This document shows positions 15,235-22,924 of a stretch of DNA of 32,000 nt, piece after piece. Origin of the DNA: Halorhodospira halophila SL1 (lineage in GTDB: Bacteria; Pseudomonadota; Gammaproteobacteria; Nitrococcales; Halorhodospiraceae); the NCBI RefSeq assembly GCF_000015585.1, contig NC_008789.1, positions 2,100,001-2,132,000 on the forward strand, in the 5' to 3' direction. The notes under the pieces are model-generated. The model did not search any database. It had not been told where the DNA came from and saw nothing but the letters and a program-made list of their open reading frames with translations. Numbering within the stretch: the first letter of the stretch is position 1; each line of letters begins with the position of its first letter. The position numbers and the translations under genes were made by a program.

Positions 15235-15951
15235 TTAACCCTCCGGCCCGCCGCTGGCGCCTCGCCGACGCAGCCGCGCCGCGGCGAGGCTGGAGAGCAG
15301 GGGCAGCGCGCCCAACGCCACCAGCGAGGCGATCATCCCAGTGCTCATCAGCTCCGCCGGGGTGTGGACCGCCTCCAGATGCGCCCCGGCGTTGGTGAGG
15401 ATGGTCACGCCAGGGAGCATGCCCAGCAGGCTCACCCAGAAGTAGGTCCGCGCCGGCATCCGGGTCAGCGCAAAGAGCGCGTTGATCAGGAAAGTGGGGA
15501 ACGGCTCGGCGATGCGCAGCAGGAACAGCGCACTCGGCCCGTGATCGGCACAGTGCCGGTCCACACGCTGCAGGGCGTCCGGGAACCGGCGGCGCACCGC
15601 ATCGTGGAGGGCGTAGCGGGTGAGCAGGAAGATCGCCAGCGCGCCGGTGCTCACCGCCACCAGGACCAGCGCCAGCCCCGCCCAGAACCCGAACATGACC
15701 CCGCCGGCAACGGTCAGCACCCCGCTGCCGGGCACCGAGACCACCGAGAAGAAAAAACGCAGGGCCAGGAAGGCGAGCGCCGCCTGCACCGGCTGCGACT
15801 CGGCCAGCTGCCGGAGCTGCTGCAGCTGGCCGTGCACCCAGGCCCACTCGGGGGCACTCCCGGCCCACAGGGCCCCGAGCAGCGCCACCAACAGCATCGC
15901 CAGAGCGGCGCGGGCGCCGAGGGTGGTCCAACGCAGGGTCGTTCCGTTCAC
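15235..15951 (-). CDS. TVP38/TMEM64 (DedA-superfamily, SNARE-associated) membrane protein
   Basis: 238 aa, multi-TM. VPGSGVLTVAGGVMFGFWAGL is typical of the family. The ATG overlaps the upstream stop by 4 nt (ATGA). Confidence 0.75.
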   Translation of the reverse strand: MNGTTLRWTTLGARAALAMLLVALLGALWAGSAPEWAWVHGQLQQLRQLAESQPVQAALAFLALRFFFSVVSVPGSGVLTVAGGVMFGFWAGLALVLVAVSTGALAIFLLTRYALHDAVRRRFPDALQRVDRHCADHGPSALFLLRIAEPFPTFLINALFALTRMPARTYFWVSLLGMLPGVTILTNAGAHLEAVHTPAELMSTGMIASLVALGALPLLSSLAAARLRRRGASGGPEG

Positions 15952-16523
15952 AGGTTCACCGGTGCCGGGTGGAGAAAGAGCTCGGTGCGATCGAAGGTCG
16001 GCATCCGGTGCCGGCAGCTACCCGCCACCGACTCGCCGACCAGCGGGCCCCCGTACTGACCCTCCAGGCCGGGCCGGGGCAGACGAAAGAGCACGCGCGC
16101 CGGCGCACGCTGGCGGCGGATATTGGCAAGGATCGGACCGCGCGGACAAGCCTGCAGAGCGATCAGGGCCACATCGATCTCCGGCAGGGGGTCGGCCGCC
16201 GCATCGGCACACACGACACGGACCCGGCCGGGCCCCGCCCCCGCCATCCCGAGATGGGCCACAACCGCCTGAGCCCCGGCGACCGCCGCGGCCGAACGGT
16301 CCACGGCGGTGACCCGGGCACCACTCAGTCGCGCGGCCAGCACTGCGGTGAACGGCAGGGCCCCGCAACCGACATGCAGGAGCCGCTCCCCCGGCACCAC
16401 CCCAGCCAGCCGCAGTTCCCGGGCCACCAACCGGCGGTACGGCAGGGCGTAGAGGTGGAACAGGAGCGGCCACCGGGCACTCCAGCGTTCCAGCCTGGCC
16501 ACGCAGGGGGCGATCAAGCGCAC
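15948..16523 (-). CDS. Small class-I SAM-binding-fold protein with nicotianamine-synthase-like motifs
   Basis: YALPYRRLVARELRL...RLLHVGCGALPFTAVLAARL...VTAVDRS...VVCADA...IDVALIALQA. Start is the GTG at 16523 or the TTG at 16517 (TTGA overlap with the btuD stop). The 244-aa form in the track would overlap btuD by about 170 nt. Confidence 0.6.
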   Translation of the reverse strand: MRLIAPCVARLERWSARWPLLFHLYALPYRRLVARELRLAGVVPGERLLHVGCGALPFTAVLAARLSGARVTAVDRSAAAVAGAQAVVAHLGMAGAGPGRVRVVCADAAADPLPEIDVALIALQACPRGPILANIRRQRAPARVLFRLPRPGLEGQYGGPLVGESVAGSCRHRMPTFDRTELFLHPAPVNL

Positions 16524-17290
16524 GGCATCCCGCCGGCGGGCACGAAGACCCGCGCACCGTCGGCTTCGGTCGCCACCAACCGCTGGCCGTAGAGTTGTTC
16601 CAGCGCCTCGGTGACCAGCATCACCCCGGTCGGCCCCCAGCAGGCATCGCCGTTGGGGTAGAGCAGCAGGATGTGCGTACACCAGCGCGCCGCGAGGTTG
16701 ATGTCGTGCAGGCAGAGAAAGACCCCGCGCCCCTCCCGGGCCTGGCCGGCGAGCAGATCCATGACGGCCACCTGGTGGCGAAGATCGAGGTGGTTGGTGG
16801 GCTCATCAGCCAGCCACACGGCCGGGTCCTGGGCCAGCACCGTGGCCATCGCCAGGCGTTGGCGCTCGCCGCCGGAAAGGGTACTGACCAGCCGCTCCTC
16901 CAGGGCACCGAGCTCCAGCCGCTCCAGGGCCTGCCGGGCACAGGTCAAGTCCTCGGCGGTCTCCAGATCCCACGGGGTCAGGTAGGGGTGACGCCCGATC
17001 AGGGCGGTCTCCAGCACCGAGGCGGGGAAGCCGTCGTGGCGCTCCTGGAAGACCACCCCCAGGCGCCGGGCCAGGGCCTTGCGCCGCCAGCGACGCAGGC
17101 TGACGCCGTCGAGCTGAACCACGCCGGCGCGGGGCGCGCGCAACCCGGCCAGGGTGTGCAGCAGCGTGGTCTTGCCGGCGCCGTTGGGACCGAGGACGCC
17201 CCACACCTCCCCGGGCTCGATGGCGAAGTTGAGCGGGTAGCCGTCCGTCCGCTCGGGGATATCGATGATCAGATCCTGGGCCTGCAGCAT
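16514..17290 (-). CDS. btuD: Vitamin B12/iron-siderophore-type ABC importer ATP-binding protein
   Basis: MLQAQDLIIDI..., Walker A GPNGAGKTT, LSGGERQRLAMA, Walker B VWLADEPTNHLD. Start at the ATG at 17290. The Gly/Arg-rich N-terminal extension in the track overlaps btuC. Confidence 0.8.
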   Translation of the reverse strand: MLQAQDLIIDIPERTDGYPLNFAIEPGEVWGVLGPNGAGKTTLLHTLAGLRAPRAGVVQLDGVSLRRWRRKALARRLGVVFQERHDGFPASVLETALIGRHPYLTPWDLETAEDLTCARQALERLELGALEERLVSTLSGGERQRLAMATVLAQDPAVWLADEPTNHLDLRHQVAVMDLLAGQAREGRGVFLCLHDINLAARWCTHILLLYPNGDACWGPTGVMLVTEALEQLYGQRLVATEADGARVFVPAGGMPCA

Positions 17291-17298
17291 GACGCGAC

Positions 17299-18360
17299 CT
17301 ACCGACTCCGGTGCAGCAGATAGAGGAACAGCGGGACGCCGAGCATCGCCGTGATCACGCCCACCGGCAACTGCTCCGGGGCGATCAGGGTGCGCGCGAA
17401 GACGTCCGCCAGCGCCAACAGCGCGCCGCCGGCCAACGCCGCGGCGGGCAGGATCAGCCGCTGGTCGTTGCCCAGTACCAGGCGGAGCATGTGCGGCACC
17501 ACCAGACCGACAAACCCGATGCTCCCCGCGGTGGTCACCGCCACCGCGGTCAGCACGCTCGCCGCCACGTAGACCCCCCACTCCAGGGGCCTCACGGCCA
17601 CACCGAGGGCCGCCGCCTGGAGCGGCCCGCGGGCGAGGACGTTGAGGCTGCGCCCCAGGGGGACCGCCACCGCCACGGCCACCGCCAGCGCCGCCAGGGC
17701 CAGCCACGGGCTGCGCGCGTAGGCCAGATCCCCCATGAGCCAGTAGAGCATCCCGGGCAGCTGCTCGGTGGGGCCGACGGCGAGCATGAAGGTCACCAGC
17801 GCCCCCCAGCCGGAGGCCACCACCACCCCGGTGAGCAGCAGCCGGGTCGGCGTCCAGCTGCCGGTGCCGTGGGCCAGGCCGAAGACCAGCAGGGTTGAGA
17901 AGAGCGCCCCGACAAAGGCGGCCCCGGAGACCAGCGCCATCCCCAGGCCGGCGAGCATCGCCGCCAGGGCCCCCACGGCGGCACCGCCGGAGAGCCCCAG
18001 CACATAGGGATCGGCGAGCGGATTGCGCAGCAGCACCTGCATCAGCGCCCCGGCCACCGCCAGCAGGCCGCCGACGGCGAAGGCGGCCAGTGCACGGGGG
18101 AGGCGCAGCTCGAGGACCAGGGTGCGGTGCAGGGGCTCCCCGCCACCGGTGAAGACCGCCAGCACCTCCCCCGGGGTCAGCGGCACGCTGCCGATAGCCA
18201 CCGCAGTGGCCACCGCCAGCAGCGCCGCCCCGGCCAGCACGGCCAGCGGCACCAGGAAGCGCACCGGCGACCCGATGCGACTCGGCTGGGCCAAAGCGCC
18301 GCCCTCCTCACTCACCGCGCCGGCGCGCGCCCGCTGATCGGCTGTGCGCTCAACCCCCAT
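17299..18360 (-). CDS. btuC: FecCD/BtuC-family ABC importer permease
   Basis: 353 aa. LRLPRALAAFAVGGLLAVAGALMQVLLRNPLADPYVLGLSGGAAVGA is typical of the family. The start overlaps the btuF stop by 1 nt (TGATG). Confidence 0.85.
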   Translation of the reverse strand: MGVERTADQRARAGAVSEEGGALAQPSRIGSPVRFLVPLAVLAGAALLAVATAVAIGSVPLTPGEVLAVFTGGGEPLHRTLVLELRLPRALAAFAVGGLLAVAGALMQVLLRNPLADPYVLGLSGGAAVGALAAMLAGLGMALVSGAAFVGALFSTLLVFGLAHGTGSWTPTRLLLTGVVVASGWGALVTFMLAVGPTEQLPGMLYWLMGDLAYARSPWLALAALAVAVAVAVPLGRSLNVLARGPLQAAALGVAVRPLEWGVYVAASVLTAVAVTTAGSIGFVGLVVPHMLRLVLGNDQRLILPAAALAGGALLALADVFARTLIAPEQLPVGVITAMLGVPLFLYLLHRSR

Positions 18361-22528: not shown

Positions 22529-22674
22529 GCTTTCCTCCCTTCCGCGCGCCACCCGCACGCGCGTCGGTCCGGTTACACCGCAGGGAGGAAGACAGGGATG
22601 GGGGAAGGGTTCGCGCTTGCGCCCGGCAAACGGTGGCCTGCCCCGGTCTGCCGCCTCCCGCGGCACCTGGGTTC

Positions 22675-22887
22675 CCTCAGGCCGGTCTCCGGGCTCGTGG
22701 GTGGGGTCGGGTGACCCCGGGCGGATCGCCTTCCCGCAGGGCCCGCCGCCGAACGACGACGCCTTGCAGTGGCCTTCTGATCCGCCCCCCACCTACCGTT
22801 GCGGGGGCAGCGCCGGACTCGCCGCTGGGTGCGGCTGTACCGGTCTTCCCGTTTCACCCCGCCGCTGCTCGCGCGGGGCACCTGAGG
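22675..22887 (-). promoter_or_regulatory. Cobalamin (AdoCbl) riboswitch b, leader of btuB
   Basis: Minus-strand read: CCTCAGG...ggggtgaaacgggaagaccggtacagccgcacccagcggcgagtccggcgctgcccccgcaacggtaggtgggg...GCCACTG (plus-strand cagtggc at 22767-22773)...gggaaggcg...agcccggagaccggCCTGAGG. P1 is closed by CCTCAGG/CCTGAGG. Confidence 0.88.
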
Positions 22888-22895
22888 AAGTTGGT

Positions 22896-22924
22896 ACTCT
22901 AGGCAGCTCGCTCACCGGCGTCAA
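22896..22924 (-). promoter_or_regulatory. Putative sigma70-type promoter for riboswitch b/btuB (TTGACG-N17-TAGAGT)
   Basis: Minus-strand TTGACG (22924-22919) and TAGAGT (22901-22896) with a 17-nt spacer. The predicted TSS is about 2 nt before the P1 strand. Confidence 0.45.

Follow-up and report, generated by a model that had tools for sequence, protein, structure and literature searches.

Organization of the operon

The DNA analyzed here is a stretch of 32,000 nucleotides (nt) from the soda-lake phototroph Halorhodospira halophila SL1 (contig NC_008789.1, positions 2,100,001 to 2,132,000), with a GC content of ~70%. It is referred to as the window, and coordinates are window positions unless a related locus is named. 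On its minus strand a promoter-like site and a cobalamin (vitamin B12) riboswitch are followed by eight genes: btuB, pduO, Uma2, btuF, btuC, btuD, G7 and DedA/VTT. G7 is the label used for the Hhal_1920-like gene that encodes a 191 amino acid (aa) protein with an S-adenosylmethionine (SAM) fold. This gene, whose product resembles nicotianamine synthase (NAS), and the DedA gene behind it are found as a pair at the 3′ end of a corrinoid operon, and the pair is the main subject here. The leader, the genes and the hairpin at the 3′ end are as follows.

22924-22896, minus strand: sigma-70-like promoter, TTGACG-17 nt-TAGAGT (promoter-pattern scan)
22900-22663, minus strand: cobalamin riboswitch aptamer RF00174 (72.8 bits, E 2.5e-16; Rfam gathering score 31.5)
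22662-22529, minus strand: expression platform, with an anti-Shine-Dalgarno (anti-SD) sequence CUUCCUCCC able to pair with the btuB Shine-Dalgarno (SD) sequence GGGAGGAA
22528-20645, minus strand: btuB, TonB-dependent B12-type outer-membrane receptor (Plug and TonB barrel; top NCBIfam match TIGR01779, TonB-B12)
20541-19972, minus strand: pduO-type corrinoid adenosyltransferase (PF01923 1.9e-56; TIGR00636 193.5 bits, above the cut-off of 108.45)
19840 or, likelier, 19813 to 19238, minus strand: Uma2 (DUF820, restriction-endonuclease-like; PF05685 131.1 bits, above the gathering score of 27)
19214 (start uncertain)-18360, minus strand: btuF, periplasmic corrinoid-binding protein (Peripla_BP_2; top NCBIfam match BtuF)
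18360-17299, minus strand: btuC, permease of the FecCD family (PF01032 2e-82; top NCBIfam match BtuC)
17290-16514, minus strand: btuD-type ABC ATPase (PF00005; NCBIfam matches to iron-complex, heme and corrinoid-type ATPases)
16523-15948, minus strand: G7, truncated NAS-like SAM-fold protein by profile, AlphaFold2 (AF2) model and Foldseek, 191 aa
15951-15235, minus strand: DedA/VTT-domain membrane protein (PF09335 80.6 bits, above the gathering score of 33.9; homologues named YdjX/TVP38, COG0398 type)
15212-15227, minus strand: GC hairpin just past the DedA stop codon, without a U tract on this strand and flagged by the terminator scan on the plus strand only

All elements of the eight-gene string that a preliminary description of this DNA had placed behind the promoter and riboswitch are present at these positions, and they support the anatomy of a single riboswitch-led unit. 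The junctions, when recomputed, also agree with those given earlier: a gap of 103 nt between btuB and pduO, a gap of 131 nt between pduO and the first ATG of Uma2 (158 nt to the ATG used in a related strain), a 1 nt overlap of btuF and btuC, a gap of 8 nt between btuC and btuD, and an overlap of btuD and G7, which is 10 nt long. The G7 start codon, GTG at 16523, agrees with the N-termini of homologues. The overlap of G7 and DedA is 4 nt, as had been reported, but it reads GTGA rather than ATGA because the DedA start codon is GTG. Translational coupling is predicted between G7 and DedA, and also with the btu gene in front of them.

The string had also been described as devoid of terminator-like hairpins with a U-tract. 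One such hairpin with a weak T tail is found inside the G7 coding sequence (16111-16090, minus strand). However, the scan gave 6 sites where shuffled sequences gave 2.9 ± 2.1, thus this hairpin is not above chance. The GC hairpin past the DedA stop codon is a weak terminator for this operon, or none.

None of the Btu proteins reaches its NCBIfam equivalog cut-off: BtuB has 529 bits with TIGR01779 (cut-off 599.7), BtuF 167.7 bits (cut-off 234), BtuC 226.8 bits (cut-off 334) and BtuD 108.9 bits (cut-off 281). The B12 models nevertheless rank first among the NCBIfam matches of BtuB, BtuF and BtuC, and a corrinoid substrate is supported by the context of the riboswitch and pduO. The btu part (btuB, pduO and btuFCD) is an ordinary riboswitch-controlled operon for corrinoid uptake and salvage. 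The assignment of DedA to the COG0398/TVP38 subfamily comes solely from the names of its homologues.

The promoter, riboswitch and expression platform

The sigma-70-like site is the sole match to the promoter pattern in the 9.5 kb between 14000 and 23500 (shuffle mean 0.3), and its position is such that transcription would begin at the aptamer's P1 stem. The aptamer is full-length, covering model positions 1-189. Orthologous aptamers head the operon in two related loci, L069, from another H. halophila strain (71.4 bits), and L071, from a more distant relative with a GC content of 70.5% (63.9 bits). The -35 sequence TTGAC, the -10 sequence, the aptamer, the anti-SD and the SD are kept in the window, L069 and L071.

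The anti-SD and SD pair stands directly upstream of the btuB ATG. The minimum free energy fold pairs the two sequences, with an energy that is no better than that of shuffled sequences (z 0.48) in this GC-rich RNA. No U-tract terminator is present in the expression platform (22662-22529), and control of btuB by the riboswitch is therefore probably translational. Translational control is usual for the btuB genes of Gram-negative bacteria. With control at btuB translation, repression of the distal genes would need polarity or mRNA decay.

G7 resembles nicotianamine synthase

G7 is 99% identical to a Halorhodospira halophila protein, and its 90% identity cluster includes SL1 Hhal_1920. The NCBI annotation is SAM-dependent methyltransferase. 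Pfam gives only generic methyltransferase models (Methyltransf_25, 6e-7), and NCBIfam gives weak matches to CpaM (2.4e-5) and CntL (5e-4). CntL is the enzyme of the staphylopine, pseudopaline and yersinopine cnt operons.

A family profile was built from 30 G7 homologues and run against the PDB sequences. The best match is MtNAS, the thermonicotianamine synthase from Methanothermobacter (1e-16), followed by CntL (4e-11), CbiT (1e-7) and then assorted methyltransferases. The AF2 model of G7 has a predicted local distance difference test (pLDDT) score of 92, and in a Foldseek search of the PDB with this model the top four matches are all MtNAS (3fpe/3fpg/3fpj; E 7e-12, template modeling (TM) score 0.76), ahead of the methyltransferases. 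The profile and the fold comparison justify the label "NAS-like" that had been given to the gene earlier.

Invariant in the G7 family are the loop GCG-x-LPF-x-A, D75 after beta-2, and Y25/P28/Y29. The loop of G7 itself, GCGALPFTA, resembles the MtNAS loop GGGPLPLTG, and the invariant Y29 aligns with MtNAS Y107. The Tyr equivalent to MtNAS Y107 (AtNAS1 Y106) is essential in AtNAS1 (PMC10248798). One family member carries the NCBI name "Nicotianamine synthase protein", and weak or faint precomputed matches to the Pfam NAS model (PF03059) are found for some G7 family members and for the G7 paralogue described below. In the AF2 model two N-terminal helices precede the Rossmann domain, and MtNAS is aligned from its residue 97 onward. 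By profile and predicted fold G7 is a truncated NAS-like protein that is closer to NAS and CntL than to methyltransferases, and its chemistry is most likely the transfer of aminobutyrate from SAM.

The operon in Halorhodospira relatives

Among the loci surveyed, G7, DedA and btu genes are combined only in the window, L069/L070, L071/L072 and L076. Gene order in L071/L072 is riboswitch, TonB receptor, btuF, btuC, btuD, pduO, G7 and DedA, without Uma2. In L071 the seven genes form a compact unit directly behind the riboswitch, with gaps of at most 38 nt, and G7 overlaps pduO by 4 nt and the DedA orthologue, which is 53% identical to that of the window, by 14 nt. The upstream neighbor of G7 is thus btuD in the window and pduO in L071; since G7 overlaps a different gene of the btu operon in L071, it stays coupled to the operon despite the changed neighbor.

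Between the window and L071, BtuC is 90% identical and PduO 82%, whereas BtuB is only 40% identical. The L071 receptor gene (4778-6652), compared with window btuB (20645-22528), appears to have been exchanged within a conserved operon. The G7-DedA pair was kept at the 3′ end of the operon although pduO moved and the receptor was swapped. The compact unit of L071 offers the best evidence that G7-DedA may be under B12 control in this lineage.

The ratios of nonsynonymous to synonymous substitution rates (dN/dS), calculated against L069, are 0.145 for G7, 0.106 for DedA and 0.08-0.19 for the btu genes; by this estimate G7 and DedA are under purifying selection. Cluster listings show the G7 gene in many Halorhodospira genomes. 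In a neighbor-joining (NJ) tree the Btu-linked G7 sequences form one clade beside a clade of Spirochaetaceae G7 sequences. A scan of JGI metagenomes for further Btu-type lineages gave none beyond the Halorhodospira-like contig L076, and a protein search seeded with the L071 G7 gave no new Btu-linked lineage. The survey for synteny with btuFCD or cobalamin riboswitches thus has two sides: the pair is also found at the end of a riboswitch-btu operon in the rearranged L071/L072, but in one clade only.

Genes for ParA-like, SulP/STAS and Usp proteins flank the operon both in the window (5917-9412) and in L071 (13437-16967), thus the two loci are syntenic beyond the btu operon.

Uma2 and the btuF start

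Uma2 is present in the H. halophila-type loci L069/L070, which have the same gene order as the window, and is absent from L071/L072. It is thus a lineage-specific insertion that lies outside any conserved B12 scheme and, on this comparison, is specific to H. halophila and unrelated to B12. The earlier suggestion that Uma2 belongs to a corrinoid or cobalt accessory module is not upheld, as there is no supported link to B12, and a part for Uma2 in a B12 scheme is ruled out by its absence from the L071/L072 operon. No flanking repeats were found around Uma2. Its dN/dS is 0.14 in comparison with L069.

Uma2 had been reported to abut btuF. The two genes are adjacent, but the Uma2 stop codon sits inside the reading frame of the BtuF signal peptide (..RTALGGIAAGFLVLLAAWSPVHA|GERC; window 19190-19245). 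The first canonical btuF start is the GTG at 19214, 23 nt downstream of Uma2, and this start leaves an 11-residue signal peptide, MLLAAWSPVHA, that has no charged n-region. The BtuF of L071, where Uma2 is not found, starts normally (MVPSLVRRALAALPLALG...). The btuF dN/dS of 0.185 denotes purifying selection despite the odd start.

About 90 nt upstream of Uma2 (window 19841-19935; L069 6615-6710) are ~95% identical between the window and L069. By comparison, the first 100 nt after pduO are ~60% identical, and the synonymous divergence of the genes is 0.2-0.7. The conserved element holds a -10-like sequence, TACACT, and may be an internal promoter belonging to Uma2.

G7 homologues are linked to Feo genes

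Searches with G7 yielded 63 loci among GTDB species representatives and 52 among JGI metagenomes. A HMMER search of 1.84 billion cluster representatives gave 94 clusters at E <= 1e-30 and 732 at E <= 1e-10. The combined set consists of 107 distinct G7 loci, in which domains were mapped by tblastn.

The recurrent architecture comprises G7, a PF03706 flippase-like membrane protein (TIGR00374 "flippase-like", MprF-related), a G7 paralogue (G7p), FeoA and FeoB. G7p has the loop GSGPYPMTA and weak matches to the Pfam NAS model. FeoA, FeoB, G7p and/or PF03706 are found within 6 kb of G7 in 95 of the 107 loci. Where at least 4 kb are available on both sides (n=42), FeoB is present in 31 loci, PF03706 in 30 and G7p in 29. 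Fusions are frequent: G7p is fused to FeoA in 30 of 44 cases and PF03706 to G7p in 9 of 40, and one spirochaete protein, encoded upstream of FeoB, is a triple fusion of G7, G7p and FeoA. A distant family member (E 2e-27) also sits after FeoAB. A minimal cassette of G7 and PF03706, with no Feo genes, is found in L004, L005, L009 and L011, and in L001 G7 is beside an HMA metal-binding protein. No riboswitch, cobalamin or other, was detected at Rfam gathering thresholds in the 12 Feo-type loci scanned.

Single proteins and loci add detail. The FeoA-fused G7p is in some proteins also joined to G7 itself, as in P0037 (592 aa). G7p-FeoA is encoded upstream of FeoB in L003 (10624-12354), L128 (6001-7779) and many of the loci L006-L127, from both bacteria and archaea. 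In L065 (6816-12221), a metagenome-assembled genome (MAG) of the Halanaerobiaceae, a FecCD-type permease and an ATPase are directly upstream of G7-FeoA-FeoB. These two proteins are 34-35% identical to window BtuC and BtuD, and in this locus, independently of the window, G7 is for a second time next to a BtuCD/FecCD-type importer.

With the window DedA as tblastn query, no DedA homologue was found in the non-Halorhodospira loci mapped. DedA as a general partner of G7 was accordingly rejected, as it occurs in Halorhodospira-type loci only. Close DedA homologues elsewhere have no B12 link, and the context of a Vibrio homologue is uninformative. In L074 (6741-8496) a DedA homologue with 41% identity is divergent to a DtxR/MntR-type metal-dependent repressor that has a C-terminal FeoA-like domain; this arrangement hints that this DedA subgroup may be metal-regulated elsewhere.

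Hosts and habitats

The hosts include Spirochaetaceae, Syntrophomonadaceae, Halanaerobiaceae, Thermoplasmata, Methanomassiliicoccales and other methanogens. Judging by labels, two sample sets supply 43 of the 63 genome loci, all of them MAGs. In one set the codes B1/CS/T1/T3 with Sed or Br match the Bitter-1, Cock Soda and Tanatar lakes of PMC6146748; the other has the codes PLM2/DLM2/GEM2, which we take to be the Cariboo Plateau soda lakes. Four more genome loci are from isolates with alkaliphile names, i.e., Alkalispirochaeta, Natroniella, Fuchsiella alkaliacetigena and Methanocrinis natronophilus. The metagenome contigs are mostly named SL_*KL_*, which from the names we read as the Kulunda soda lakes. 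Most of the genomes and metagenomes in which the G7 family is found thus bear soda-lake labels, and both bacteria and archaea are represented.

A possible role for the G7-DedA pair

The explanation of the whole that we favor, tentatively and with somewhat less than even confidence, is a riboswitch-led corrinoid salvage operon that carries G7-DedA as an accessory cassette for metal or cofactor uptake. G7 with a membrane partner would be a module of general occurrence, linked to metal uptake and brought under B12 control in Halorhodospira, and not a B12-specific one, because Feo-type loci make up 95 of the 107 and the link to B12 is limited to one clade. The preliminary description had proposed an undescribed accessory module for corrinoid or cobalt acquisition. 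A conserved pair within a B12 operon is indeed found, but the usual context of the family is Feo and not B12.

In the proposed mechanism the operon would have acquired the two-gene cassette at its 3′ end in the Halorhodospira lineage. G7 would transfer the 3-amino-3-carboxypropyl (aminobutyrate) group of SAM to an acceptor, whereby an amino-carboxylate metal chelator is made and methylthioadenosine (MTA) is released, and DedA/VTT would move this product across or within the cytoplasmic membrane. Since the enzyme family accompanies FeoB in soda-lake anaerobes, together with PF03706 and a FeoA-fused paralogue, the module may in this way make a scarce divalent metal available to an importer in the cytoplasmic membrane at high pH and high salt. 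In Halorhodospira it would be expressed at low B12, when the cell needs to salvage corrinoids and also requires cobalt for de novo synthesis. Of all this, the gene anatomy, the riboswitch, the NAS-like fold, the synteny and the purifying selection are seen in the data, and we infer co-transcription, riboswitch control of the distal genes (probably by translational control of btuB and polarity), the chemistry, the translocator role of DedA and the target metal. Cobalt is a plausible target: the window is a B12 supercluster with additional riboswitch-led receptors (see below), thus a supply of cobalt for de novo synthesis would be a reasonable aim and one of the extra receptors a candidate importer.

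Several points weigh against this explanation. Feo imports free Fe2+ and not chelates, and a secreted metallophore fits Feo poorly. The operon has neither a CntM-like opine dehydrogenase nor a cobalt transporter. The Pfam NAS model gives no match to window G7 at E <= 0.01. G7 is without the N-terminal helical domain of ~80-100 residues that closes the reaction chamber in NAS and CntL, and a counterpart of the catalytic Glu (MtNAS E81/AtNAS1 E77) could not be established, as the region N-terminal of G7 residue 20 is unalignable by sequence; the family has an invariant E12 and E36. G7 and DedA diverge faster than btuCDF, with 53-56% as compared to 71-90% identity between the window and L071. The linkage of G7-DedA to B12 is, in the loci compared, confined to a single Halorhodospira-level (genus-level) clade, because the L071 BtuC is 90% identical and the tree has a single clade. 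A promoter at Uma2 could make Uma2-btuFCD-G7-DedA partly independent of the riboswitch in H. halophila. Finally, the activity ascribed to both partner families, the COG0398 DedA proteins and the MprF-like flippase domain, is the translocation of lipids and not of small solutes, and COG0398 DedA proteins are putative phospholipid scramblases (PMC10127716).

The last point leads to the main alternative, a lipid product. G7 would add an aminocarboxypropyl or methyl group to a lipid head group and DedA or PF03706 would flip the lipid outward; no soluble metallophore would be made, and the outcome would be a remodelled membrane surface or a membrane-anchored chelator beside the importer. We consider this unlikely, yet a serious contender. 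In addition to the lipid-moving character of both partner families, the PF03706-G7p fusions (9 of 40) copy the layout of MprF, a flippase followed by an enzyme that modifies head groups, and the missing NAS lid domain would, in the model, make space for a bulky acceptor. The SAM-dependent transfer of an aminocarboxypropyl group to a lipid has a precedent in BtaA. However, lipids are not known as substrates of any NAS/CntL superfamily member, the surroundings of the G7 loci have no conserved genes for lipid biosynthesis, and the tight link to FeoA/FeoB or btu genes is not explained by a lipid product alone. A more speculative variant, which we regard as rather improbable, would unite the two ideas. 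Here the short NAS-like proteins (G7 and the FeoA-fused paralogue), together with PF03706 or DedA, would equip a membrane lipid or another membrane-bound acceptor with a chelating head group of the aminocarboxypropyl type and flip it outward; the result would be membrane-anchored metal capture at pH ~10, accessory to Feo or Btu.

Two weaker rivals should also be considered. The pair may be a passenger, acquired horizontally at the 3′ end of the btu operon and transcribed with it or from an internal promoter, with no function in B12 or cobalt metabolism. The position of the Btu-linked G7 clade next to the Spirochaetaceae clade, the limitation of the linkage to Halorhodospira-level relatives, the usual Feo context, in which the 12 loci scanned have no riboswitch, and the possible Uma2 promoter, which would uncouple the distal genes from the riboswitch, are all consistent with a passenger. 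Yet the pair stayed through a rearrangement in which pduO moved and the receptor was swapped, in either arrangement it is translationally coupled to the btu gene in front, and it is under purifying selection and present across many Halorhodospira genomes; a mere passenger is thus doubtful in our view. Alternatively, G7 could be an ordinary SAM-dependent methyltransferase that acts on a corrinoid or a corrinoid protein, similar to CbiT or CpaM, as the NCBI annotation, the generic Pfam models and the weak CpaM and CbiT matches would suggest. This reading fits homology and context poorly and is very unlikely, since the NAS and CntL matches are better by 4-9 orders of magnitude in the profile and fold searches, the family-specific LPFT and YxxPY motifs are common to NAS, and the 95 Feo-type loci are without B12 genes. 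G7 as a CbiT/CpaM-type corrinoid methyltransferase was therefore rejected.

Comparison with known systems

The products of characterized NAS-like enzymes are the nicotianamine and opine metallophores found in plants, pathogens and one methanogen. G7 has its best profile and fold matches to MtNAS and CntL, and shares with them a Rossmann SAM domain, a GxGxLPxT-type loop, an acidic residue after beta-2 and the Tyr aligned with MtNAS Y107. However, G7 has ~190 aa as compared to 255-300, with most of the N-terminal helical domain missing, and it is usually Feo-linked, often with a second paralogue that is fused to FeoA. As in cnt operons, G7 is encoded beside a membrane protein that may translocate the product and beside metal importers, here a TonB receptor and an ABC system. 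It differs from them in having no CntM or CntK partner and in being paired with DedA or PF03706 instead of an MFS/EamA exporter. Cnt operons are regulated by Zur/Fur, whereas G7 is here predicted to be under a cobalamin riboswitch.

The window shares with canonical btu operons the RF00174 aptamer with an SD-sequestering platform, the TonB receptor, a BtuF/C/D-type importer and the adenosyltransferase. It departs from them in three extra genes, Uma2, G7 and DedA, in the sub-cut-off scores of its Btu proteins, and in the overlap of Uma2 with the btuF start. The Feo-type loci resemble MprF in domain order, as PF03706 precedes a cytoplasmic group-transfer enzyme, with which it forms a fusion in 9 of 40 cases. 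Here the enzyme domain is NAS-like and SAM-dependent and not an aminoacyl-tRNA-dependent lysylphosphatidylglycerol (LPG) synthase, and the partner in the window is DedA. A resemblance to the Feo accessories FeoA and FeoC is seen in the fusion of G7p to FeoA directly upstream of FeoB, with G7 in the same cluster, but the window itself is without feo genes. A comparative survey of Feo architectures (PMC8749426) mentions no methyltransferase-like or NAS-like component.

In open-access literature on a link between NAS-like proteins and Feo, a link between DedA and B12, and soda-lake iron uptake, a scope that is no proof of novelty, the module is undescribed. The opine-metallophore bioinformatic map (PMC7438024) and the NAS phylogeny (PMC10248798) also have no description of it. 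The G7 family adds a short-form branch to the NAS-like proteins, recurrently encoded with parts of the Feo importer and sometimes fused to them. If the proposed role is correct, Feo, whose accessory biology is poorly understood, would gain a new class of partners, the COG0398 DedA and PF03706 proteins would gain a shared and testable substrate context, and a cobalamin riboswitch would control a chelator-type accessory function alongside corrinoid salvage. If the product is lipid-anchored, the NAS fold would be put to a new biochemical use, and the accessory components of Feo and Btu would include a new class. The distribution of the module across bacteria and archaea suggests a specific adaptation to the metal supply of soda lakes, where Fe, Co and Ni must be obtained from brines rich in carbonate and sulfide at pH ~10.

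Other features of the window

The window as a whole is a B12 supercluster, with genes for cbiA/cbiP-type amidotransferases, cbiJ, cbiD and a cysG-like gene. Three cobalamin riboswitches are present in the 32 kb, at 2406-2162 (minus strand), 22900-22663 (minus strand, described above) and 23820-24071 (plus strand), and each heads a TonB receptor gene. The receptor gene behind the first riboswitch has its start near 2080 and is truncated by the left edge of the window. Open reading frames of 390 and 652 aa that were noted downstream of this riboswitch are off-frame artefacts, and the real gene is that of the TonB receptor. The receptor behind the third riboswitch (24199-26247) is not BtuB-like (TIGR01779, 126 bits) and is followed by cbiD. 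These additional riboswitch-led receptors might import complexes of cobalt or another metal, or other corrinoids.

Immediately downstream of DedA, and also on the minus strand, is a MacAB-type set that consists of a MacB-type ATPase (15163-14423), a double FtsX/MacB_PCD permease (14426-12063) and an RND/HlyD-type adaptor (12126-10855). The set is absent from L071 and present in L069. By analogy with PvdRT, a pump of the MacAB kind could export a periplasmic product through the outer membrane.

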